Positions 21,251 to 33,324 of a DNA stretch of 59,118 nucleotides are shown one piece after another. Position 1 is the first letter of the stretch; each line of letters opens with the position of its first letter. Origin of the DNA: a bacterium (GTDB taxonomy: Bacteria; Zhuqueibacterota; Zhuqueibacteria; Residuimicrobiales; Krinioviventaceae); contig CAXXFV010000002.1 of NCBI GenBank assembly GCA_963674595.2, positions 1 through 59,118 on the forward strand, given 5' to 3'. Below the pieces are notes generated by a model, which saw nothing but the letters and a program-made list of their open reading frames with translations, did no database searches and was not told the origin of the DNA. Position numbers and translations under genes: made by a program.

Positions 21251-22039
21251 ATGAAAAAATATGTATTTTTACTGATATTCGTCTTGCTAGCCGGTTGTCA
21301 AAAACAGATTTCGATTAAAAAAGACAATAAAGGTTCGTTCGATACACAAAATCTTAAATACGCACATACCATCCCCACATTTTTTGAATCATATCATGTT
21401 CAGGGTTTGGATATCGTGGATAGCTGCGGCTTTTTATCATCTATTGATAAAAAAGCACGTATCGCATGGATTTTTAAATTTTCCTTAAAAACCGGTGAAA
21501 TAATACATAAAAGAGATATCACCATTGGCGAGCAAATCCACCCGGGTGGCATTCAATATTCCGGGAATTATGTTTGGGTGCCCGTGGCCGAATACAAGGC
21601 CCATAGCACATCAACAATATTAGCTTTGGACCCGAATTCTTTAACAATTGAAAAAAAGTTTACCGTAAATGATCATATTGGTGCGGTTGCTATTGATGAT
21701 GATAATAACATTTGGGGTGCTAACTGGGATTCCGATGATTTTTATAAATGGGATCAGGCCGGCACTCAGTTATTAAAACAACAAAACCCGACAACAATGC
21801 AGTATCAGGATATGAAATATATTGATAACTATTTGTATTGTTGCGGACATAACAAAGATACCTCTGCTGTGGATATATATTCTGTAAATAAACTGGAATT
21901 TAAAAAACGTATATCATTGGAAAAAGGTGAATTGGCCACAGATTTGGCGCGCGAAGGAATGGCTTTTTATAAACAACAATTTTATTTTTTACCTGATGAT
22001 GGTCCTGATTCGAAAATATTTGTATTTGATATAAATTGA
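21251..22039 (+). CDS. Beta-propeller lipoprotein (DUF6454-like)
   Basis: Lipobox LAGC; YHVQG, HPGGIQY...VWVPVAEY, DHIGAV, GANW and YQDMK motifs; family name from memory. Confidence 0.6.
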   Translation: MKKYVFLLIFVLLAGCQKQISIKKDNKGSFDTQNLKYAHTIPTFFESYHVQGLDIVDSCGFLSSIDKKARIAWIFKFSLKTGEIIHKRDITIGEQIHPGGIQYSGNYVWVPVAEYKAHSTSTILALDPNSLTIEKKFTVNDHIGAVAIDDDNNIWGANWDSDDFYKWDQAGTQLLKQQNPTTMQYQDMKYIDNYLYCCGHNKDTSAVDIYSVNKLEFKKRISLEKGELATDLAREGMAFYKQQFYFLPDDGPDSKIFVFDIN

Positions 22040-22076
22040 GTGTTGTATCTATAAATTTATAACAGGAGGAACAATA

Positions 22077-22373
22077 ATGATCGTTACGTGTTATAAATGT
22101 GGTGAAGTTACATCAAAGGATAGAAAAATATGGCATTTGGAGGTATGTGAAAATTGTAATAGTTATCTTCACGTGTGTTTAAATTGTAAATTTTATGATC
22201 CACAGGCATCCAAACAATGCCGTGAACCGGAAGCTGACAAGATTGCCGACAAAGATAAATCAAATTATTGTGAATATTTTGAACCTGGAAAAAATAAAAG
22301 TGTAGGCAAACAGGAACGTGCGGAAGATGCCAAAAAGAAATTGGACGATTTATTCAAAAATTTAAAAGAATAA
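22077..22373 (+). CDS. Small Cys-rich conserved hypothetical protein
   Basis: CxxC, CxxC..LHxCxNC.FY, C.E and NYCEYF; AGGAGG RBS; terminator follows. Confidence 0.75.
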   Translation: MIVTCYKCGEVTSKDRKIWHLEVCENCNSYLHVCLNCKFYDPQASKQCREPEADKIADKDKSNYCEYFEPGKNKSVGKQERAEDAKKKLDDLFKNLKE

Positions 22374-22382
22374 AAATTATAT

Positions 22383-22408
22383 AGCAGTCTTTTGACTGCT
22401 TTTTTTTT
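22383..22408 (+). terminator. Intrinsic terminator
   Basis: agcagtc-tttt-gactgct followed by T-run. Confidence 0.8.
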
Positions 22409-22469
22409 AATAAATCATGTTTCAATTTAGATCGTAAACGGCTTTTGCAATAGGAAAGATAGTTCTAAA

Positions 22470-24269
22470 ATGAAATTATTTCTTAAAGTTTGTATTGTTT
22501 TTCTTGTCCTGACAAGTTGTAAAGAACACACCCAAATATCTCCGGTCGATTTATCAGGTAATTGGAAATTTTGCACAGACCCGGATAATGTTGGGGAAGA
22601 TCAAAAATGGTTTTCTGAGATCGGCAGCCAAAATTGGGAGCAAATTCGAATTCCTTCTTCATTCAACGCCGTAAAACAGGATTTACTATGGTATCGGGGA
22701 ACAGTTTGGTATCAGGTATCTTTTACAGTACCTTCTGAATGGCCGGCAGGACGTTTGTTCCTTCATTTTCTCGGCGTTTCTACAAGGTCCAGGATATGGC
22801 TGAATGGACATGAAATCGGCTCTAATTTGTTTCCTTATACCGGCTTTAAGTATGACATAACTGATGTTGCCCAAAAAACAAAAGAAAATATTCTCACTGT
22901 TTGTGTTGATAATAAAATTTTAGAAAAATCGATTCCCGATAATAACTGGAACGGATGGTGGAATTTTGGAGGTATTTACCGCCAGGTGTTTTTAGAATAT
23001 GAACCGAGTGTTTTTATCAGGGACGCCCGTATTGTAACAGAAATGCAAAATGATAATAAATGGAAATTGGATCTTGATATTACGTTAAACAATACATTAA
23101 AAAGAAGTAATTATACTCTTGAATTTGAGGTAACAGATAAAAATGGTGAATCGAAATGGAAAAAAAAGGTTAAAAAGGATTTGCCTGCCGGACAATCAAA
23201 TGAAAAGTCACGTGCTGTTTTTGAAAATATTACCGGCTGGTCTCCCGGTGAACCGGCCTTATATAACCTGGTTATAAAACTTGTCGGGAAAAATGATATT
23301 TACTGTCGAAAAGACCTTAGGTTTGGGTTCAGACAAATCGCTGTTAAAGACGATAAAATACTATTAAACGGAAAACCGATTCAAATTTATGGAATTTCGC
23401 GACAAGAGTTGTATCCTGGTACCGGGCATTATGTTTCCTCCTTACGTACAAAGATGGATTTGGAAGACATAAAATCTCTTGGATGCAATTTATTACGAAT
23501 GACCCATTATCCAAACCAACCTTTGGTTTTTGATTTATGTGATGAAATGGGACTGCTTGTATGGTGTGAATTTCCCGCATGGAAAACCGGTGCATCAACC
23601 TTGGCGGATACGGATGTTTGGGCACAATATGGTGAACCTCAATTAACCCAAATGGTCCGGTCTTTTCAAAATCATCCATCAGTAGTAATATGGTCTTTAG
23701 GAAATGATTTGCCCACAGATAAAATAGAGGGGGTGAATTATATAGACAAAGCCTACAAGCTTTTAAAAAAACTTGATCCTTCCCGACTCGTTACGTTCGC
23801 ATCTGACAAAAATATTAAAGACCTGGCATTCAAAAATACAGATATTATTTCGATAAATTCACCCATGGAAGATTTTCGTGCCGTTAAATATATTGGTGAA
23901 ATGTTGGACAAGGTCCATAAAACCTGGCCGGAGAAACCGGTCCTTGTTAGTGAGGCAGGAGGGGAAGCTGTTTTTGGCTGGCGAAATACAAACACTCAAA
24001 ATATAACCAAAGATTATACTGAGGATTATCAAATTTATTGTTTATCTCAATATTTTGAAACTATTTTTGATCCAACCCGAAAGGAGTATGTGAGCGGCCT
24101 TATTATTACCGGTTATGCTGATTTTCCGGCGCCAAACAAAATTGCAAGCGGGCATCCGCCATTGGCTGCCTATGTTAATTGCAGCGGCCTGGTTACCCAG
24201 GACCGCCAGAAAAAGCGTGCCTTTGATTTTGTCCGTAAATATTTTTCATCATTGTCCGATGAAAAATAA
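22470..24269 (+). CDS. Glycoside hydrolase family 2 (beta-glucuronidase-like) lipoprotein with altered active-site motifs
   Basis: Lipobox LTSC; WWNFGGIYR.V, FGFRQI, R.THYP, CDEMGLLVW.E and NHPSVVIWS motifs. Confidence 0.85.
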   Translation: MKLFLKVCIVFLVLTSCKEHTQISPVDLSGNWKFCTDPDNVGEDQKWFSEIGSQNWEQIRIPSSFNAVKQDLLWYRGTVWYQVSFTVPSEWPAGRLFLHFLGVSTRSRIWLNGHEIGSNLFPYTGFKYDITDVAQKTKENILTVCVDNKILEKSIPDNNWNGWWNFGGIYRQVFLEYEPSVFIRDARIVTEMQNDNKWKLDLDITLNNTLKRSNYTLEFEVTDKNGESKWKKKVKKDLPAGQSNEKSRAVFENITGWSPGEPALYNLVIKLVGKNDIYCRKDLRFGFRQIAVKDDKILLNGKPIQIYGISRQELYPGTGHYVSSLRTKMDLEDIKSLGCNLLRMTHYPNQPLVFDLCDEMGLLVWCEFPAWKTGASTLADTDVWAQYGEPQLTQMVRSFQNHPSVVIWSLGNDLPTDKIEGVNYIDKAYKLLKKLDPSRLVTFASDKNIKDLAFKNTDIISINSPMEDFRAVKYIGEMLDKVHKTWPEKPVLVSEAGGEAVFGWRNTNTQNITKDYTEDYQIYCLSQYFETIFDPTRKEYVSGLIITGYADFPAPNKIASGHPPLAAYVNCSGLVTQDRQKKRAFDFVRKYFSSLSDEK

Positions 24270-24545: not shown

Positions 24546-25295
24546 CTAAAATATCTTGAGAAGTTTAAAAGACATAATAACAATAGCAACGATTAACATA
24601 ATACGAATGAGTTTTTCGCCTTTTTTAATGGAAAGTTTCGCAGCCCACCAAGCACCTGTCGCGTTACCGACGGCCAGAATAATTCCAAGCAGCCAATCTG
24701 TTTTGCCATTTATAGCAAAAATAAAAAGGGCCGGTATTGTATAAATCAAAATAATAAAAACTTTGTGCATGTTGACACGTACTATACTAATTTTTAATGT
24801 ATGGAACAAGGCAGCCATAAACAGGAATCCGACGCCTACCTGAATAAAACCTCCGTAAAAACCAATACCAACCAACATGGGATAAATAATCCACGGATTT
24901 TTAGATTTTATATTTTCAACCGTTTCCTTTTTTTTCATCGGCATTATGATGGTAAAAATTATTCCAATCATAACAATTCCGAGGATCTTTTGGAATAAGA
25001 GATTGTCAATTTTAACGGCCGTAATAGCGCCGATAATGGCGCCCGGCAGCGTAAATAGTGCTAATTTGAAACTTTTTCCAAATTCGGAATATTTTTCATT
25101 TTTAAAAGAAAGAATAGCAGAAATATTTTGAATCACAAGAGCGATGCGGTTTGTACCGTTTGCAAGAGCGCTGTCCAGACCTAAAAATATAAGCATCGGT
25201 AACGTTAGTGAAGACCCGCCGCCGGCCATTACATTTATAAACCCGGCCAGGCAACCGGTTAAAAACAGAATGAGAGCAGTTAATGGAAATGGCAT
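24546..25295 (-). CDS. Sulfite exporter TauE/SafE family membrane protein
   Basis: AGFINVMAGGGS, ANGTNR and GFYGGFIQ.GVG motifs. Confidence 0.9.
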   Translation of the reverse strand: MPFPLTALILFLTGCLAGFINVMAGGGSSLTLPMLIFLGLDSALANGTNRIALVIQNISAILSFKNEKYSEFGKSFKLALFTLPGAIIGAITAVKIDNLLFQKILGIVMIGIIFTIIMPMKKKETVENIKSKNPWIIYPMLVGIGFYGGFIQVGVGFLFMAALFHTLKISIVRVNMHKVFIILIYTIPALFIFAINGKTDWLLGIILAVGNATGAWWAAKLSIKKGEKLIRIMLIVAIVIMSFKLLKIF

Positions 25296-25386: not shown

Positions 25387-28308
25387 TTAACGAAAGGGTT
25401 TAAAGGATATGAACCAGGCCCAAGAGTCTCCGCCTTTGTTCCATGCTTGCGCAATCCCAAAAGATAAAGTCGATTCAATATTATACCAGTGTTTTAGTTT
25501 AATATTTAATTGTGTTCCTATATTTGCCCATCGGTCAAACATTTCCGGGGAGAAAAACAAGTATTGATTAAAAATCGTCAAATCCATGCTTGTAAAGGTA
25601 TGGGGGCCGAGATGAAAATTGGTAAAACGACAGGGGGGAAGCTTGTTCTCAAATCCCACTTTAATAAATTCATCGTTTGTCAGGTCGTAAATCGGTACAC
25701 CCGGAAACCGAAATACTTTTCGATATTGTTCCGCTAGTTCCGGATCGATATACTGGTTGCCAAATCCACCAAAATAAAAATTGGTTAAAGCGCCAGTTTT
25801 ACCCGTATGCCGCCATCCGCCGGCTAGTTGTAAATGAAAAACATTATGTGGTTTTAAAAAGATATTATATTTGTTCCATTCAACATGAAAACCACCGGCG
25901 TTTTTCATGTTTTTAGGATCTATGTGCATACTTGTTAATGCTAATGAAAATTCAGTTCCCTGTTCAATATCAACACTTCCAATAGACCGGCGGGTATTTT
26001 TCGAATTTATAGTGCTTTCATATATTATAAAATTGGGGTGTTCAACTGTAATCATGTTGTCATTAATTGTTTTAACACCGTAAAAAACAGATATTTCATT
26101 TTCATGACTTATTTTATGCGGCATATCATATTTCCAATAGTGAGTGTTTTTTGCTGAAAAATTCTGCATAAAAGTTGCTTTTTTACGTTTGTTAAATACA
26201 TCATAAAAATTAGCAGGATTGTATTTGTAAACCAGTTCCCATGTTTTTTTGTATTCATATTTTAAGTTAAAATGGACATGGTCTTTTATTGTTTTTTGCC
26301 TAGTGTCCGACATGCCCGCAAAAAAACGGATTTCATGAACAGCCAGGGGATCTGAAAAATATCCGTAAAAACCGTAAACAAGATCATTTTTAAAACCGGA
26401 AATTGTGGGAAAAAGAGAATTGCGTTTAATATTCAAAAAGCCATTGTAACTCTTTTCTCTGGTATGAGAATTTGTTTCAGGTAAGGAACCGGTTAACTGC
26501 AATTGTTGTAATTGGGGCTCCTTTTCTATAATCTGTTGCCCATAATATTTTATCGCCGGTAAATATTCCACCTCTTTATTCGGTATTGTTACCGGAATAA
26601 AACCTTGGGTGGTAAATTCAAAAGCAAAAACTGAATCACCGTTAACAGGAACAGGCCGGAAAAGTCCGCGTTTTGTATGAGATATTGCAAATACTTTTTT
26701 TGTTTCAAAATCATATCTGTATATATTTGAAACGCCGTTGTTATAGGCATTCCAATAGAGGTGTTTTTCATCGTCCGACCAGGAAGGATGTTCCGGTGAA
26801 CCTGACGTTGCAATTTTGTTATAAATGATTTCACCGTTTTTTCTTACCTGGTTCATATCGATAACAATAATTTCCTGCTGACCATTTTGATAATGGATCG
26901 TACCGGCCAGCCACCGTCCGTTTGGGCTGGCACATAATTGCTGTACGGAATATCCAAAATCCAGTTGTTGCGACTGGTTAAAACCAAGATAGGGAAATGA
27001 TGTATATACGATTTTTTCACATCCGTCAGACCGGTGAATTCCCCACAGTTCTTTGGTCTTTTTGCAATATGTCAGGTCGCCTATTCGGATATCTTTAAAG
27101 AGCTTTTTATTGATTTTTGAATAGGGGTCTAACAGCCACAGGTCCCGAAAAAGAAAATTATTGTTGGTAGTATAAAACAACAGCCCGGCGTCAGGATCAA
27201 TCGTGGTGGACGCAACCTGTACCAAACGCGGTGTAGGCAAAGTACCGATATATTCCAATTCCCCTGTTTTTAAATCAATAGATTTTATGCCGGCAAGTTC
27301 ATTGGCGGCATGGGTGCCAAAAATTATTTTAGTTTTTTTTGAGTTTATCATGGGTTGTGTAACCCACCCAAGAGGTGCATTTGATAAATATGTTATGGGT
27401 GTATATTCTGATTTATCCAGACGGGCTAAATTTTCTTTCTGAAAATAATATTCGGTTTTAACAAAATCCTTCCATGCATCTTTTAATGATGATCCGAAAA
27501 TGTTTTTAAAAGCCTTATTGTAGGATTTATACCCGTTTTGCTGGCCTTTATACCATTTGATATAAAGATTAGAATCATATTTATTGGCTAAATAAGCTGA
27601 AAATCTGGCGCCGTATAAATAGAATTGCATTTGGAGTAAAAAGGAAGTGTAAACCGTATAACTGTCAAGTTTTACCGGGTTTGGTAATTTTTGATTTTCA
27701 ACAACCATTGATCTGAAAAACATCTCATCAAAACTGCCCTGTAATCGCCCATAACCACCATTCATCCAGGTTTCAAGAAACATAGCGATACCTTCCTGAT
27801 GCCAGTCTGGCGTGTATCTGCCCCAATTGGTCAACAGACTGTAAAACAATGAAGTTGGATATTCTTTTTCAGGAGGGACCTTGGCGGTTAATGTGCGTAA
27901 AAATTTTGAAAATGGAAAATAAGAATCGCCTATTACAACATGTACAAGTTCATGTGAGATCAACCATCTTAACCGGTCATTATAGGGGATGCTTTCATAA
28001 TCCAATTCGAAGGAGGCAATGTCAAGACGTATGACGTTATGCGGCACACTGGTTGTTCCTGCTGCACCAAAATCATGATAGTCGTTTAAGGTAATGGTTA
28101 TTTTTTCTAAAGGTTTATAATTGAACAGGGAGGAGAGGGTAGACAAAGATTCTTCGGCACTTGAAAGGATTCCAGGTACAAGTTGCTTATGAGATGACCA
28201 ATAGATAATTTTAAAATTTTTACTTTCCGTTTCAAGCCGGGTTTGTGAATAACAAAATGAAAAGGAAAAGAACAACCATAAGGTTAATGTTAAGCTGATT
28301 TTTTTCAT
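25387..28308 (-). CDS. Outer-membrane protein: zinc-metallopeptidase-like (MA clan) domain, TolB-like beta-propeller and C-terminal beta-barrel
   Basis: Signal peptide; HELVH at 27940-27954 plus downstream W.QEGIA; PD40-like repeats (SPNGRWLA, PSWSDDEKHLYW...GVSNIY); FYFGGFG loop; aromatic-rich C-terminal strand WAWFISFKPFR. Confidence 0.72.
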   Translation of the reverse strand: MKKISLTLTLWLFFSFSFCYSQTRLETESKNFKIIYWSSHKQLVPGILSSAEESLSTLSSLFNYKPLEKITITLNDYHDFGAAGTTSVPHNVIRLDIASFELDYESIPYNDRLRWLISHELVHVVIGDSYFPFSKFLRTLTAKVPPEKEYPTSLFYSLLTNWGRYTPDWHQEGIAMFLETWMNGGYGRLQGSFDEMFFRSMVVENQKLPNPVKLDSYTVYTSFLLQMQFYLYGARFSAYLANKYDSNLYIKWYKGQQNGYKSYNKAFKNIFGSSLKDAWKDFVKTEYYFQKENLARLDKSEYTPITYLSNAPLGWVTQPMINSKKTKIIFGTHAANELAGIKSIDLKTGELEYIGTLPTPRLVQVASTTIDPDAGLLFYTTNNNFLFRDLWLLDPYSKINKKLFKDIRIGDLTYCKKTKELWGIHRSDGCEKIVYTSFPYLGFNQSQQLDFGYSVQQLCASPNGRWLAGTIHYQNGQQEIIVIDMNQVRKNGEIIYNKIATSGSPEHPSWSDDEKHLYWNAYNNGVSNIYRYDFETKKVFAISHTKRGLFRPVPVNGDSVFAFEFTTQGFIPVTIPNKEVEYLPAIKYYGQQIIEKEPQLQQLQLTGSLPETNSHTREKSYNGFLNIKRNSLFPTISGFKNDLVYGFYGYFSDPLAVHEIRFFAGMSDTRQKTIKDHVHFNLKYEYKKTWELVYKYNPANFYDVFNKRKKATFMQNFSAKNTHYWKYDMPHKISHENEISVFYGVKTINDNMITVEHPNFIIYESTINSKNTRRSIGSVDIEQGTEFSLALTSMHIDPKNMKNAGGFHVEWNKYNIFLKPHNVFHLQLAGGWRHTGKTGALTNFYFGGFGNQYIDPELAEQYRKVFRFPGVPIYDLTNDEFIKVGFENKLPPCRFTNFHLGPHTFTSMDLTIFNQYLFFSPEMFDRWANIGTQLNIKLKHWYNIESTLSFGIAQAWNKGGDSWAWFISFKPFR

Positions 28309-28340
28309 TTAAATATTGGGAATTGCATTGAATGATAAAG

Positions 28341-28365
28341 AGGGTCCCTAAATATTAGGGACCCT
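28341..28365 (-). terminator. Perfect hairpin between repeat gene and OMP gene (terminator/attenuator candidate)
   Basis: agggtcccta-aatat-tagggaccct 10-bp stem; only a weak U-tract (ctttat) on the minus strand. Confidence 0.55.
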
Positions 28366-28499
28366 TGCATTCAACCTCCACATCCACGCTAGTCAAAGTA
28401 TTCTCTTAGAAGATGAATTTTGCGGCCATTCATTTACTAGATACAATTCACTCAAATATATTGAAACTTGATTTCAACCCTCGAATAGAGTGAATTATA

Positions 28500-29531
28500 T
28501 TATTTGATTTGAGCGGCATTATCTTTAGACAGTGAATAGATAGAACCTAACTCGTTAACCTGAGCGGCGTTATCTTTAGACAGTGAATAGATAGAACCTA
28601 ACTCGTTAACCTGAGCGGCATTATCTTTAGACAGTGAATAGATAGAACCAAGCTCGTTAACCTGAGCGGCGTTATCTTTAGACAATGAATAGATAGAACC
28701 TAACTCGTTAACCTGAGCGGCATTATCTTTAGACAGTGAATAGATAGAACCTAACTCGTTAACCTGAGCGGCATTATCTTTAGACAATGAATAGATAGAA
28801 CCTAACTCGTTAACCTGAGCGGCGTTATCTTTAGACAGTGAATAGATAGAACCAAGCTCGTTAACCTGAGCGGCGTTATCTTTAGACAATGAATAGATAG
28901 AACCTAACTCGTTAACCTGAGCGGCATTATCTTTAGACAGTGAATAGATAGAACCTAACTCGTTAACCTGAGCGGCATTATCTTTAGACAATGAATAGAT
29001 AGAACCTAACTCGTTAACCTGAGCGGCATTATCTTTAGACAATGAATAGATAGAACCTAACTCGTTAACCTGAGCGGCGTTATCTTTAGACAGTGAATAG
29101 ATAGAACCTAACTCGTTAACCTGAGCGGTATTATCTTTAGACAATGAATAGATAGAACCTAACTCGTTAACCTGAGCGGCGTTATCTTTAGACAGTGAAT
29201 AGATAGAACCTAACTCGTTAACCTGAGCGGCATTATCTTTAGACAATGAATAGATAGAACCTAACTCGTTAACCTGAGCGGCGTTATCTTTAGACAATGA
29301 ATAGATAGAACCGAGCTCACTGAGTTGCATTGTTGAATTTTGTTCTAAAACAGTTTGATCTGCTTGAGAACTAGTCAACATTTCTTTTGATGCGTTGATG
29401 TTGGTAGCAGAGGCTGATGCATGAGTTTGGGCCTGGTATCGAACTGCGTTTTCTACCTTTGTCGGTACTTGCGCAACGGCCGCTGTTGCACAAATAATTA
29501 AAACCAATACCCATACAACATGCTTTACCAC
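28500..29531 (-). CDS. Secreted tandem-repeat protein: signal peptide, ~50-aa Ser/Thr/Gln/Ala-rich spacer, then 16 x 17-aa repeats
   Basis: GAAAGGAGGT RBS before GTG; Sec signal ending AAVA|Q; repeat variation almost entirely synonymous. Confidence 0.88.
   Translation of the reverse strand: MVKHVVWVLVLIICATAAVAQVPTKVENAVRYQAQTHASASATNINASKEMLTSSQADQTVLEQNSTMQLSELGSIYSLSKDNAAQVNELGSIYSLSKDNAAQVNELGSIYSLSKDNAAQVNELGSIYSLSKDNTAQVNELGSIYSLSKDNAAQVNELGSIYSLSKDNAAQVNELGSIYSLSKDNAAQVNELGSIYSLSKDNAAQVNELGSIYSLSKDNAAQVNELGSIYSLSKDNAAQVNELGSIYSLSKDNAAQVNELGSIYSLSKDNAAQVNELGSIYSLSKDNAAQVNELGSIYSLSKDNAAQVNELGSIYSLSKDNAAQVNELGSIYSLSKDNAAQIK
28503..29318 (-). repeat. 51-bp tandem repeat, 16 copies, no spacers
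   Basis: Plus-strand unit gttaacctgagcggcRttatctttagacaRtgaatagatagaaccWaRctc; 16 x 51 = 816 bp. Confidence 0.97.
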
Positions 29532-29883
29532 TTTTACCTCCTTTCATTAAATGAAAGTGGCTACCATTTATTGCACAACACTCCGGAGAGTGGTTGATGC
29601 CTAACAGAGCAAAATCAAAAGTGATACAACAAGTTTTGCATATAAAATGCAAAGGTGGTTTCAAAGAACAGTGTAATCTATAAAACCGTAAAAAATATAA
29701 ATATAATCAGTTGGTGAAAATTATAATATTGCTGCGATGAACTATGCTTTTTGTTATAAATCTTAAAGCGTTGCCTGACTAATCGAAGTATGATGATATT
29801 ATTATAACTAATAAAGTTTAGTGCTTTTTTATATTATAAGCAAGTTATTTTTTAATATAGTTGCTGTTAAGTTGCTTTTTAAT

Positions 29884-29912: not shown

Positions 29913-29990
29913 TGGTCGGGGCGGAGAGATTCGAACTCTCGACTTCCTGCTCCCAAAGCAGGCGCGCTAACCGGGCTGCGCTACGCCCCG
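29913..29990 (-). tRNA. tRNA-Pro(TGG), CCA encoded
   Basis: CGGGGCGTAGCGCAGCCCGGTTAGCGCGCCTGCTTTGGGAGCAGGAAGTCGAGAGTTCGAATCTCTCCGCCCCGACCA cloverleaf. Confidence 0.97.
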
Positions 29991-30860: not shown

Positions 30861-32051
30861 TTAAAATTTTTCTGATAACTGCTTTAAATTTTCTATTTCT
30901 TTTTCAAGTTGCATGATTCGATTAAGAATATACTGTTTATCCTGTCTGGTATCCATTTTAGTATAAGATGCCTGAAAAGCCTTTGTAGGAATTTGGGCGC
31001 TGCGGCTTTTTTCGATCATTGAGATGGGTTTATAATCGCTGGTTAAATTGGTGGGAGGTTGTCCAATTGTTAATTTTATATCTTTTGTCCCGGTACTGCG
31101 TAGAATTTTTAAATCAACACTTGTCCCCGGTCTTTGTTGAGTTATAAAAGAAGCAAGTTCTAATGTTTGTGTTACTCTTTTCCCATTAATACTTATTATA
31201 ATATCTCCCATTTTAATTCCTGCTTCCTGAGCGGGACTGCTGGGAGTTACCTGGCGTATATGAATACCGCCCATAATTCCAGGCCAGTTTTCTGCACTTA
31301 CTCCGATCCAGCCATTGGGTGATTGGGAAAATGGTAATAATTGTTTTAGAGTTTTTTGTATTTTGTCGCCGGGATAGGCCAGAATAGTATCATTTATATA
31401 GAGCATACCCGGATTTTTTTCATCAACAAAAGTCTTTAATTGACTGCTTATAATACCAACAAGTTGTGCTGAAGAGTTAAAAACAAAGTCTCCTTCACTG
31501 TTTGTCAGGTATGTAGATAATTGTATCATATCATCATTCCGGATGCAGTTGACATGACCAAATGAAACAGCCGGTATAACTGACAGGGAATTACCAATAA
31601 TGACGACATAATTACCAGCCGCTAGAGAAGCAGACAAACCCCATTTTACAGGTTTTTTAAATTTTTGAGGTGATTTTATCAGGGCCAGGCCAAGCTCAGG
31701 GTCCGCACTTATAAACTCTGCATCTATTTGTTCATTATCAAAAGTCGTTATTTGTATTTCTTTACTTCCCAGCACATTTTCAAGTTTTGTCAGAACATGG
31801 ACAGAGTCTATTATAACCCCGGCCCCGATCTTTGTATAACCGGGATTTTCTGGTTGGGGTGCAGATATATCTTGTGCGGTAAAGTAAGATGTGATTTGAA
31901 CGATACCCGGTCTGGCTTTTGTAATAATATGTGTTATATCTTTTTCAATTTTCTGTAAAAATGTATCTTGAGCAAATACATTTATGGAAAATAAAAGTAA
32001 AACAATCGGTAGATATAATATCTCTCTGGGTGGTTTCTTTTTATTTAACAT
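30861..32051 (-). CDS. HtrA/DegP-like trypsin-fold plus PDZ protein, catalytic triad apparently lost
   Basis: GAGVIID, LALIK, VVIIGNSL, GWIGV and PDZ motif SPAQEAGIKMGDIIISING; no TNxHV or GNSGG. Confidence 0.78.
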   Translation of the reverse strand: MLNKKKPPREILYLPIVLLLFSINVFAQDTFLQKIEKDITHIITKARPGIVQITSYFTAQDISAPQPENPGYTKIGAGVIIDSVHVLTKLENVLGSKEIQITTFDNEQIDAEFISADPELGLALIKSPQKFKKPVKWGLSASLAAGNYVVIIGNSLSVIPAVSFGHVNCIRNDDMIQLSTYLTNSEGDFVFNSSAQLVGIISSQLKTFVDEKNPGMLYINDTILAYPGDKIQKTLKQLLPFSQSPNGWIGVSAENWPGIMGGIHIRQVTPSSPAQEAGIKMGDIIISINGKRVTQTLELASFITQQRPGTSVDLKILRSTGTKDIKLTIGQPPTNLTSDYKPISMIEKSRSAQIPTKAFQASYTKMDTRQDKQYILNRIMQLEKEIENLKQLSEKF

Positions 32052-32072
32052 AATTCACCGGCTTAAATTCGG

Positions 32073-32699
32073 TTAAAAACGAATGACTGCACTTGTTTGC
32101 GTAAAGAGTGGTTCATTGACAGTTGTTTGTCTGCGTAAACTGTCATCATTGAAAATTCTAGCACGCGATAAAGCATTTGAATTATCGCGTGCAATACTTT
32201 TACGGGTATCTACAGCAGGCCGTTTTTCAATTTTTGCACGATATCGATTGTCAACAAAGGATTTTTGTACGGTATTCGTTTGCGGTTGAACCTTTTGTAA
32301 AGGAATGCTGTTAACCGTGTTGGATTGGGTTGATAAAAGCGCCGGTTGGTTATGAATATATTGCTGGTCAATAAGTATACCTAATGATATAAAAATAACA
32401 GCGGCTGTTGCATACATTGACATCCGAAGGGGTGTACGCATATCATTAAATATATTTACAAATGACCCCTTATTCATTTCTGCTCTTATTCGTGACCTTA
32501 ATTCAACATCAAATGTTGAAGATGTTTTATATTTGGGCAACTGTCCCAGGTTTGAGGTCAACATTTTCATGTTTGAAACCCGTGCTCTACAAGAAGAGCA
32601 TTTTTCAAGATGGGAATTAAATTTGTCTTCCTCTGGTCTGGTGAGTTCACCTTCAATATAAGCAGAAATTTTTTTCTGAAAATTGTAACAAATTGCCAT
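32073..32699 (-). CDS. Zinc-binding (zf-HC2/ZAS) transmembrane anti-sigma factor
   Basis: C....ISAYIEGEL...HLEKCSSC, single TM helix, immediately after the ECF sigma gene. Confidence 0.85.
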   Translation of the reverse strand: MAICYNFQKKISAYIEGELTRPEEDKFNSHLEKCSSCRARVSNMKMLTSNLGQLPKYKTSSTFDVELRSRIRAEMNKGSFVNIFNDMRTPLRMSMYATAAVIFISLGILIDQQYIHNQPALLSTQSNTVNSIPLQKVQPQTNTVQKSFVDNRYRAKIEKRPAVDTRKSIARDNSNALSRARIFNDDSLRRQTTVNEPLFTQTSAVIRF

Positions 32700-32712
32700 T
32701 CATCCCTCTCTT

Positions 32713-33324
32713 TTAATTTTTGTCTTCATAGCCTTTTATTTTATATAATTTTGCCTGTAATTTTAAACGAGCCCGGTTAACCCTTGATTTTACTGTTCCT
32801 AACGGAATGTTTAAAATTTCACTAATTTCTTCGTATGCCAATTCTTGAACGTCTCGCAATATTATAACCTGTTTAAATCTTTTAGGCAGTTCTTCAATTG
32901 CTTTTTGGATTATGTCTTCTTTTAATACAGAGTCAACGTCTCGTTCGGTGTTTGATTTTTTGTCTTCAATTTCAAATTCTTTGTCGTCGTATCCCAGTTC
33001 AGATATGGATACCAGTTTTCTGCGTTTTCGTTTTCGCAGCTCTGTTTTTGATAAATTTCCGGCTATTGTGTAAAGCCAAGTTGAAAATTTTGCAATCCTT
33101 TTGTATGCATGTTTGTTTTTATAAAGTCTTAAAAATGTTTCCTGAACAACATCTTCAGCTTCTTCAATATTTCCAACAAATCGATAAGCAAAGTTCAACA
33201 GAGGATTTTTATATCTTTTAACAATAATATCAAATGCATAAAGATCACCATCCTGAAATCTTTGGATGAGTTCTTCATCACTTATCTGTGGTCTGTTATC
33301 GGATTTACTGGAATTCGTTTTCAT
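32713..33324 (-). CDS. ECF RNA polymerase sigma-70 factor (RpoE/SigW-like)
   Basis: AEDVVQETF, FSTWLYTIA.N and YEEISEIL.IP.GTVKSR..RAR motifs. Confidence 0.94.
   Translation of the reverse strand: MKTNSSKSDNRPQISDEELIQRFQDGDLYAFDIIVKRYKNPLLNFAYRFVGNIEEAEDVVQETFLRLYKNKHAYKRIAKFSTWLYTIAGNLSKTELRKRKRRKLVSISELGYDDKEFEIEDKKSNTERDVDSVLKEDIIQKAIEELPKRFKQVIILRDVQELAYEEISEILNIPLGTVKSRVNRARLKLQAKLYKIKGYEDKN

Follow-up and report, generated by a model that had tools for sequence, protein, structure and literature searches.

A tandem-repeat protein gene beside a peptidase-propeller Omp85-type gene: a candidate client and its outer-membrane machine

We describe a pair of genes in a 59,118-nt stretch of DNA (contig CAXXFV010000002.1 of GenBank assembly GCA_963674595.2, positions 1 to 59,118; hereafter the window) from a bacterium of the Krinioviventaceae in the phylum Zhuqueibacterota. 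The first gene (28500..29531, minus strand) encodes a 343-aa protein with a predicted signal peptide, a docking motif, a spacer and 16 tandem 17-aa units, and the second (25387..28308, minus strand) encodes a 973-aa putative outer-membrane protein (OMP) that combines a signal peptide, a gluzincin domain, a propeller and an Omp85-like barrel. We find that a tandem-repeat gene directly precedes the OMP gene in most loci that encode a homologue of this OMP, that the repeat proteins share the start of the protein and not the repeats, and that this shared start is predicted to dock on the OMP. We propose that the pair consists of a dedicated client and an Omp85-peptidase machine that processes and/or exports it. 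This is a reading to which we give an even chance, and we arrive at it because the client looks bulk-made, the peptidase is invariant, and the functional loop of the barrel is the most conserved stretch.

Linkage of the two genes across homologues

The two genes are co-oriented with a gap of 191 nt, as had been stated in an earlier reading of this stretch made from its letters (the original prediction), which took them for a two-gene module on the grounds of adjacency. Homologues of the OMP number 586 proteins among the candidates scored, and the best 120 are 42–54% identical over 95–100% of the length. OMP relatives are encoded in at least 485 of 591 candidate stretches from species-representative genomes, whose record titles name Ignavibacteriota, Calditrichota, Chlorobiota, Bacteroidota (including Balneolaceae), KSB1, Latescibacterota, Eisenbacteria, Aminicenantes and Acidobacteriota. 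Genomes labelled Ignavibacterium and Chlorobaculum occur among these loci. We surveyed 80 of these loci, nine of which had too little upstream DNA, leaving 71 assessable, and scored upstream repeats by Tandem Repeats Finder (TRF), by translation of open reading frames (ORFs), by identity autocorrelation and by a BLOSUM autocorrelation z-score against shuffles.

A tandem-repeat ORF stood directly upstream of the OMP gene, on the same strand, in 63 of the 71 assessable loci; 51 of these scored z ≥ 8, eight had their units at a contig edge, and four were partly N-masked, frame-broken or limited to three units. From the stop of the repeat ORF to the OMP start the distance was 25–482 nt (median 116). 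Many contigs start inside the array, which is expected if repeats break assemblies. Weak forms were seen in 4 of the 71 loci (an ORF with a single unit, a trace of six residues at the edge of a contig, and two proteins that have the tag but only degenerate repeats or none that are clear), and another 4 had no adjacent repeat gene. In two of the latter the repeat gene lies elsewhere in the genome, in another a repeat ORF lies 2.9 kb upstream behind an opposite-strand gene, and the last is a 4.3-kb contig of an incomplete genome. In one of these genomes (locus L107; genome G001, contig 16, 235500–244500) the repeat gene and its sigma-54 activator stand beside an integrase about 95 kb from the OMP gene, on the contig that also carries the latter. 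The repeat gene there is followed by a His/Asn-rich ORF and by one that resembles a tyrosine recombinase, which suggests that a mobile insertion split the pair.

The association is specific to this branch of OMPs. Of the other ORFs in these loci that are 100 aa or longer, 665 in number, only 10 reached z ≥ 8, four of them being the displaced repeat ORF of locus L078 and its antisense shadows, and no upstream repeat ORF was found in any of the nine assessable loci of the nearest paralogous HExxH-propeller proteins, where the top z was 4.4. In a second sample, taken from relatives of the window's genome, a repeat ORF was present in 9 of 9 assessable loci, one of which is the same contig as L059. 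Both samples thus bear out the two-gene module. They also agree with the expectation, set out in the original prediction, that homologous OMP genes should be preceded by signal-peptide tandem-repeat ORFs even where the repeat itself is different, since the units range from 6 to 36 aa and their sequences are unrelated.

Two genes can also stay adjacent through shared ancestry while working independently. The loci do come from related phyla, kin share gene order, and the pair is separated in 4 of the 71 loci. However, adjacency holds across at least eight named phylum-level groups despite wholly replaced repeats, both genes are kept where they are separated, the co-fold described below passes its controls, and the anchor type of the partner, the regulators and PrsW all switch with the clade of the OMP. 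That the two are neighbours by descent only is in our opinion highly improbable.

A few observations on these loci deserve mention. Upstream of the outgroup HExxH-propeller genes of loci L120, L122, L124 and L126 there is a conserved same-strand frame of about 800 aa with the shared segment LGLLGSMTLLMASQLGMPSLF, possibly a dedicated partner of another kind. Copy numbers in the recorded arrays of L005, L031, L041, L059/L110, L107 and L116 are hidden by runs of N. In the public runs X3 and X5, which are other samples, contigs over 25387–28539 include the OMP gene and differ from the window at 25 and 43 single bases in 3153 nt, with no indels, so that close strains are present in several studies.

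The outer-membrane protein and its place among Omp85 proteins

The structure of the OMP was modelled by AlphaFold2 on a 34-sequence alignment (pLDDT 84.6, pTM 0.84). As the whole-model Foldseek and VIA-align lists were filled by propellers, the N-terminal domain (residues 24–297; 27418..28239, minus strand) was folded separately, with a pLDDT of 86.8. Folded alone it matched the catalytic domain of M1 aminopeptidase (VIA-align Z 15.9, rmsd 3.5, 230 residues aligned), M30 lugdulysin (Z 15.7), LTA4 hydrolase (14.2) and thermolysin (11.2), and among those listed the fold matches at Z ≥ 8 are nearly all zinc peptidases. The sequence HELVH occupies residues 119–123 (27940–27954), and Glu172 (27793–27795) lies in HQEG at residues 170–173; none of the five residues H119, E120, H123, E172 and E179 varies in any of the 70 full-length sequences compared, which come from both clades of the family. 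HExxH with a downstream Glu as third zinc ligand, on a modelled thermolysin-like catalytic fold, marks the domain as a gluzincin (MA clan), and the five invariant residues together with this predicted fold suggest that catalysis is needed. Curated peptidase family models gave only sub-threshold matches (Pfam BSP at E 0.058; NCBIfam flagellinolysin at E 7e-4 and 19 bits, against a cut-off of 205), and we accordingly regard the domain as a fold-level relative rather than a member of a named family. In the Pfam scan PF13485 did not match the OMP, and PF26549 and PF26550, two accessions precomputed for it, were not returned.

Residues 300–581 (26566..27411, minus strand) are assigned by fold search to a six-bladed TolB-like beta-propeller, which aligned over 241 residues with TolB (1c5k) at Z 23.2 and rmsd 2.9. 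The top Foldseek matches were likewise TolB, and the Pfam PD40 match in the curated-library scan was weak and sub-threshold (E 0.009). Residues 628–973 (25390..26427, minus strand) are modelled as an Omp85/BamA-like beta-barrel, with 16 strands over residues 628–970 and 285 residues aligned with the barrel of Deinococcus radiodurans BamA (Z 19.4, rmsd 3.9). Strands 11 and 12 of the model are joined by a long loop of 45 residues (835–879; 25672..25806), which corresponds in position to Omp85 loop L6 and carries the most conserved motif of the family (FYFGGFGN … FRFPG); FGGFGN and PG do not vary in any of the 70 sequences. That the most conserved stretch falls in this loop suggests that the barrel is more than an anchor. 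A sequence search of solved structures returned no match with the OMP alone and, with the family profile, only weak TolB/WD40 matches (best E 0.007). Residues, model and fold search thus agree with the domain order that had been read from the sequence, namely an HExxH peptidase with a downstream EG motif, a TolB-like propeller and an Omp85-like barrel.

Loop L6 of Omp85 proteins has the motif (V/I)RG(F/Y). When the family profile of the OMP was aligned by hhalign with a 1048-aa paralogue from the same genome, which carries Peptidase_MA_2, PD40 and Omp85 Pfam matches, the alignment started in the peptidase, reached into the barrel and took in about 780 columns (probability 97.9%, E 3.7e-13). 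Here the L6-position loop falls together with the LRGAYY of the paralogue, opposite FRFP-GVPIY, and the RG falls in a gap. The paralogue (L097:2269–5415, minus strand; genome G000, contig 15) has no repeat gene upstream.

Omp85 subfamilies that lack POTRA domains are recognised (PMC4104836). Heinz and Lithgow (2014) catalogued peptidase/WD40-Omp85 proteins, including a WD40-Omp85 cluster in which the propeller resembles TolB (PMC4104836), and a 2024 summary lists divergent WD40 and peptidase domains for such subfamilies (PMC11358297). Neither a function nor a partner gene is assigned to them in the accessible parts of these two papers (PMC4104836; PMC11358297). The OMP has the modelled 16-strand BamA-type C-terminal barrel expected of the Omp85/TpsB superfamily, and the TolB-like propeller fused to an Omp85 barrel expected of the peptidase/WD40-Omp85 proteins; as far as the accessible descriptions go, these resemble it in that their 16-strand barrel is preceded not by POTRA domains but by a TolB-like propeller and a peptidase. 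No POTRA domain was matched in the OMP by Pfam or NCBIfam, its N-terminal 600 residues being gluzincin and propeller, and since non-POTRA subfamilies exist this excludes BamA, TamA and TpsB proper but not the superfamily. PF01103 did not match the OMP up to E 10, and a scan of its own genome with PF01103 picked 12 other genes, an unusually rich Omp85 set; even so, the family profile aligns through the barrel with the 1048-aa paralogue, which does match PF01103. The branch of the OMP differs from the peptidase/WD40-Omp85 paralogues in that it alone is preceded by the repeat gene, which none of 9 paralogue loci has. We file the OMP as a separate, divergent branch of this architecture, placed there by the architecture as described in the accessible text. 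In part of the Ignavibacteriaceae the OMP is longer, about 1225–1250 aa, with an extra N-terminal region of about 270 aa that has a weak Cu_amine_oxidN1 match (E 3.6e-4, below cut-off); these are loci L007, L009, L012, L019, L022, L026–L027, L030–L033, L035–L042, L044, L046 and L053.

The repeat protein, its N-terminal tag and the predicted docking

The repeat gene starts with GTG, 4 nt behind the Shine-Dalgarno sequence AAAGGAGGT (29536..29544, minus strand). Residues 1–21 (29469..29531) form a hydrophobic predicted Sec signal peptide that ends in VAQ, with an uncharged stretch of 16 aa ending small-x-A. A polar spacer of 50 aa (residues 22–71) follows ahead of the array; its first part, residues 22–36 (29424..29468), is the conserved motif VPTKVENAVRYQAQT, the predicted docking tag. 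The array (28503..29318) consists of 16 tandem 17-aa units, ELGSIYSLSKDNAAQVN, the final one ending AAQIK, and TRF reports it at 28510–29312 with period 51, 15.7 copies and 95% matches. The strong ribosome-binding site, the Sec signal, the polar spacer of about 50 aa and the 16 copies are all where the original prediction had placed them. Over the 16 DNA copies there are 26 departures from the consensus, of which 22 are synonymous (22% would be expected if random), and three of the four nonsynonymous ones fall in the final unit; this argues that the array is constrained coding sequence and not a non-coding repeat. The 6.6-Mb genome, assembled in 37 contigs, has one copy each of the repeat gene and the OMP gene. 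Of the sequence words sampled, the three RNA runs listed contained only a fraction of 0.06–0.08. In all 4 public runs the short-read contigs end at 28539 and restart at about 29267–29283, and the bin 29011–29161 has zero short-read contig cover, so the array is not bridged and the copy number of 16 rests on the assembly of the window itself.

A tRNA-Pro (29913–29990) and a terminator-like hairpin precede the repeat gene, which thus has a promoter region of its own. A second terminator-like hairpin (28341..28365, minus strand; an 11-pair stem with six GC pairs) stands in the gap between this gene and that of the OMP, and comparable hairpin and T-run sequences are found 3′ of the repeat gene in related loci. 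Judged from its sequence, this hairpin may act as a terminator, although terminator-like sites in the region are not above shuffles (4 vs 4.3). With the strong Shine-Dalgarno sequence, the own promoter region and the hairpin before the OMP gene, the gene looks like one made for bulk production of the client.

The tree of the OMP (FastTree, 70 rows) splits into 50 rows that include the window (clade A) and 20 rows (clade B) with 100% local support, and the partners split with it. Clade-A units are 15–18 aa long and of the type x-Q-L-x-E-L-G-x-x-Y-x-W/F-x-R/K, of which the window's unit is a variant; a relative with 51% OMP identity has the unit SISKDDAAQLNELGHIL. Clade-B units are 6–36 aa long and mostly amphipathic helical, such as DAAFQELMK, ELQAALKSP, LQTLDAKSITA, LEKMPVLERAQT and an MgtE_N-like form. 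Copy numbers across the loci range from 1 (L036) to about 37. Repeat sequence and period are therefore not conserved between lineages, whereas the start of the protein is. In the 24 clade-A proteins compared, an uncharged stretch of 13–21 residues ends in small-x-A and is followed within 3–12 residues by V-E-x-A-x-R-Y/F-R; the window's repeat protein aligns with 18 clade-A homologues, and V26, A29 and R31 are invariant in these 19 sequences. In the 17 clade-B proteins the stretch is 18–27 residues long, lacks such a cleavage site and has YPWP or YPPP at its end; it is followed within 9–20 residues by G-T-I-G-x-x-x-K-Y-R-x-x-Q, whose K/R-Y-R..Q motif is related to the clade-A tag. The clade-A stretch is probably a cleaved signal peptide and the clade-B stretch a membrane anchor. 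What we see is a conserved machine whose partner keeps only a tag of about 10 residues, with the rest swapped for unrelated repeats.

Pfam and NCBIfam matches of the repeat proteins (V_ATPase_prox, GCIP_C, lanthipeptide leader, CbiG_mid and others) were set aside as repeat artefacts, as no single stretch passes, and an ESM Atlas search with the repeat protein gave no usable match. We also dropped the idea that the 16–17-aa units are barrel strands or amyloid, given copy numbers from 1 to about 37 and helical units in clade B.

We co-folded OMP residues 22–610 (on an alignment of 34) with client residues 21–125 (on an alignment of 19), which comprise the tag, the spacer and three units. Three runs gave an ipSAE of 0.78, 0.74 and 0.78, and the best of three controls gave 0.00; the mark used for ipSAE is reached by 58 of 80 solved complexes and by 2 of 110 mismatched pairs, counts that apply only roughly with custom alignments. 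The pLDDT of the partner was 35–38, and at least 32% of the contacts were common to the runs. The only client residues placed with confidence are 22–36, that is, the conserved tag. In the model it contacts the propeller (residues 475–477, 502–503, 522–525 and 538–541), the linker (579–588, 591, 594, 601 and 604) and the peptidase (110, 184–186 and 190–191, flanking the two catalytic helices), and it is thus predicted to sit in a groove between the three.

The layout of the repeat protein, with near-identical units beside a gene for an invariant peptidase, also fits a multicopy peptide precursor, in which the peptidase would cut at every unit boundary and free identical 15–18-mers (17-mers here) as signals or antimicrobials. 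Units are near-identical within a species, as the 22 synonymous changes among 26 in the window illustrate, TRF matches are 91–100% in most clade-A arrays, and in many clade-A ORFs the stop falls precisely where a unit is completed, behind Arg or Lys. The ORF of the window, in contrast, does not end at a unit boundary, and the co-fold puts no unit in the active site. Moreover, the range of copy numbers from a single one upward and the loose identity of the helical clade-B units look more like a repetitive domain than like defined cores, and no tailoring enzyme or peptide exporter was found among the window's neighbours and 106 neighbouring ORFs of related loci, where the genes are regulators, PrsW, TPR proteins, kinases and housekeeping genes. 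We consider the peptide-precursor explanation quite unlikely.

Regulation, weighing of the readings and relation to known systems

The regulators differ between the clades. A PrsW-family gene lies directly 3′ of the OMP gene in 21 of 81 sequences searched, all 21 of them clade B, where it follows the OMP gene in 21 of 23 assessable loci; counted by tree rows, it is present in 18 of 20 in clade B and in 0 of 50 in clade A. The clade-B operon reads, in order, an extracytoplasmic function (ECF) sigma factor, an anti-sigma factor of about 260 aa recognised by its position, the repeat gene, the OMP gene and PrsW. At four loci the repeat protein has a long N-terminal extension, and in at least two of these (L072 and L076) an ECF sigma gene is directly upstream; the extension of these two is homologous to the positional anti-sigma factor (E 8e-11 and 3e-15) through the membrane helix to the shared GTI motif. 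PrsW is described, in the accessible part of the source, as the site-1 protease of the anti-sigma factor RsiW (PMC3482391). We infer that in clade B PrsW may cut near GTIG, which would free a tag-first client and fire the sigma factor, and that this cut would be the counterpart of signal-peptide removal in clade A. Upstream neighbours in clade A include sigma-54 activators in 17 of 56 cases and three Ser/Thr kinases with TPR repeats, and downstream neighbours carry HATPase_c in 18 of 50, 17 of these with GAF. A strict sigma-54 promoter consensus occurs at 16 sites in 1.8 Mb of loci, and 12 of these sites lie just upstream of repeat genes (12 of 42 loci). The anchor type of the partner, the regulators and PrsW switch together with the clade of the OMP.

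In the window, an ECF sigma gene (32716–33324), a zf-HC2 anti-sigma gene (32076–32699) and a gene for an HtrA-like trypsin-PDZ protease (30864–32051) form a block (30864–33324, minus strand) co-oriented with the pair. The block lies 1.3–3.8 kb upstream (the sigma and anti-sigma genes 2.5 kb), with Ham1, a 65-aa ORF, the tRNA-Pro and a terminator intervening. It could be the regulator of the pair, as in clade B, or an unrelated sigmaE-like unit; clade B, but not the window locus, has the genes for the ECF sigma factor, the anti-sigma factor and PrsW combined with the pair in a single operon. As for the other neighbours, the gene after the OMP gene (24549–25295, minus strand) belongs to the TauE/SafE sulfite-exporter family, and the gene at this place in one Calditrichaceae locus is a SulP/STAS sulfate permease (L010:3610–5349, minus strand) on the other strand than the module, a likeness that is probably a coincidence. 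Further on (21251–24269, plus strand) there are a DUF6454 lipoprotein-like ORF, a small Cys-rich ORF and a GH2 glycosidase, all of them ordinary.

The apparently membrane-anchored form of the clade-B proteins raises the possibility of a structural envelope complex of the TamA-TamB kind, in which the OMP would hold the repeat protein at the outer membrane, either as a periplasm-spanning tether or as a scaffold that binds lipid or protein, and the peptidase would serve quality control. The clade-B proteins appear from their sequences to be anchored in the inner membrane and carry amphipathic helical repeats of 9, 11, 12, 18 and 22 aa, with weak STI1/HOP_DP and MgtE_N-like matches, and the tag binds the OMP in the model. 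Clade-A clients, on the other hand, have putative cleavable signal peptides and so no inner-membrane anchor, client length varies about ten-fold between species, which would be odd for a ruler or tether, and the position of PrsW after the OMP gene in clade B suggests that the anchor is cut. We regard a structural complex as very doubtful.

The regulators themselves are the ground for another alternative, namely periplasmic regulated proteolysis or signalling without export. Here the client would be a bait or ectodomain that the outer-membrane-tethered peptidase-propeller degrades, and its level or cleavage state would set the ECF sigma factor in clade B or the sigma-54 activator in clade A. 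The clade-B operon with its PrsW, a family known for the RsiW site-1 protease (PMC3482391, in its accessible part), the anti-sigma N-terminus shared by the L072 and L076 clients, the sigma-54 activators and HATPase_c proteins next to clade-A pairs and the sigma, anti-sigma and HtrA-like genes upstream in the window would all fit such a system. Clade-A clients, however, appear to be free, secreted and equipped with signals for bulk expression, as one would expect of a product sooner than of a stoichiometric sensor. Nor would a barrel that only anchors explain why the L6-position loop is so extremely conserved, and in the window the sigma and anti-sigma genes are cut off from the pair by Ham1, a tRNA and a terminator. 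Signalling without export seems to us an improbable account, if the most serious of the four alternatives.

We favor the reading of a client and its machine, which would work as follows. The repeat protein would leave the cytoplasm via Sec and lose its signal peptide, and the new N-terminal motif V-E-x-A-x-R-Y would dock in the groove between propeller, linker and zinc peptidase on the periplasmic side of the OMP, as in the model. The invariant gluzincin site would then cut the client, and the BamA-like barrel would provide the path, through it or along it, by which the client or its pieces cross or enter the outer membrane; the product may be peptides or a polymer. Production would be switched on by dedicated envelope or signal regulators, which in many clade-A relatives would be sigma-54 with an enhancer-binding protein and in clade B the ECF sigma factor, the anti-sigma factor and PrsW, the last of which probably frees the membrane-anchored client.

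Several points weigh against this reading. The BamA barrel, to which the barrel of the OMP was matched, is closed according to the accessible text of the catalogue (PMC4104836), and the RG motif of L6 is not kept in the OMP in the alignment with the paralogue. The original prediction had proposed a co-fold of the repeat with the peptidase domain; binding to the OMP was indeed predicted, with an ipSAE of 0.78 against 0.00 for the best control, but it is the tag that is docked in the model, and the repeats are not placed in the active site. Nor is the conservation of the OMP interface significantly above that of the rest of residues 22–610 (0.49 vs 0.43), since 1296 of 10,000 random sets reach 0.49. 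In clade B the tag is only 9–20 residues from the membrane anchor, so docking there would need prior release or very close membranes. The window's repeat gene has no sigma-54 promoter consensus upstream, and the pair has no adjacent PrsW or kinase. Finally, the module is patchy: of 30 related genomes 10 gave strong matches, as did 3 of 18 belonging to the same family, and a complete one-contig relative gave no match with the query used; we take this occurrence to mean that the module is accessory.

A comparison with known systems helps to place the pair. In two-partner secretion (type Vb), a TpsB/FhaC protein of the Omp85 family is encoded beside a dedicated, Sec-exported and highly repetitive TpsA client with a conserved N-terminal recognition element. 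The pair is similar in that one dedicated client is encoded beside an Omp85-type protein (63 of 71 loci), and in that this client is also Sec-type and repetitive with a conserved N-terminal element. It is unlike two-partner secretion in having the client gene first, a machine with a zinc peptidase and a propeller, and a tag of about 10 residues instead of a folded domain, and neither a TPS domain, POTRA domains nor a ShlB-type barrel was matched in the pair by Pfam or NCBIfam. Multicore peptide precursors, among them yeast alpha-factor, the fungal dikaritins and the cyanobactins, consist of a signal or leader and many identical short units, with a protease nearby. The repeat protein shares this layout, including the nearby protease gene, whereas the pair has no tailoring enzymes close by, its units differ wholly between clades, and cleavage is in its case conjectural. 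TolB binds disordered peptides, namely Pal and the TolB box of colicins, and the six-bladed propeller of the OMP is likewise predicted to hold a short, otherwise disordered peptide; unlike in TolB, this peptide would lie between the propeller, linker and peptidase of a single OMP, and there is no Tol-Pal context. The clade-B operons resemble SigmaW-RsiW-PrsW in their ECF sigma factor, positional anti-sigma factor and PrsW-family protease, and some clients are fused to an anti-sigma-like N-terminus. Systems of this kind are not known to have an outer-membrane component or a repeat protein, and the window's own clade has no PrsW (0 of 50 rows). The original prediction did not recognise the system as a described one, and the pair indeed seems to be undescribed in the full-text literature searched, but the architecture of the barrel protein had already been catalogued in 2014, as the accessible part of that paper documents (PMC4104836).

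What we have here looks like an Omp85 protein with one dedicated, neighbour-encoded client, which may prove to be a new pathway. In its broadest form, the proposal puts the pair at the core of an Omp85-based pathway for export and maturation, so far undescribed, in the FCB group and neighbouring phyla. A tag of about 10 residues, exposed by signal peptidase or PrsW, would address the client to a barrel with its own propeller receptor and zinc peptidase, the client would be cut into identical unit peptides or fed outward as a polymer, the product would act outside as signal, matrix or defence, and its release would be wired to ECF sigma or sigma-54. Taken as a whole this proposal is unlikely, and we offer it tentatively. 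Non-POTRA Omp85 proteins have been catalogued for more than 10 years with no function or partner assigned in the accessible literature, and our analysis gives one branch of them, present in at least 485 species representatives, a specific, testable client that offers a mutable docking tag, a killable active site and a predicted interface. If the pair does export or process its client, it would represent a new diderm route by which repetitive proteins or peptides travel across or into the outer membrane, and an outer-membrane step would be tied to PrsW-type and sigma-54 signalling.

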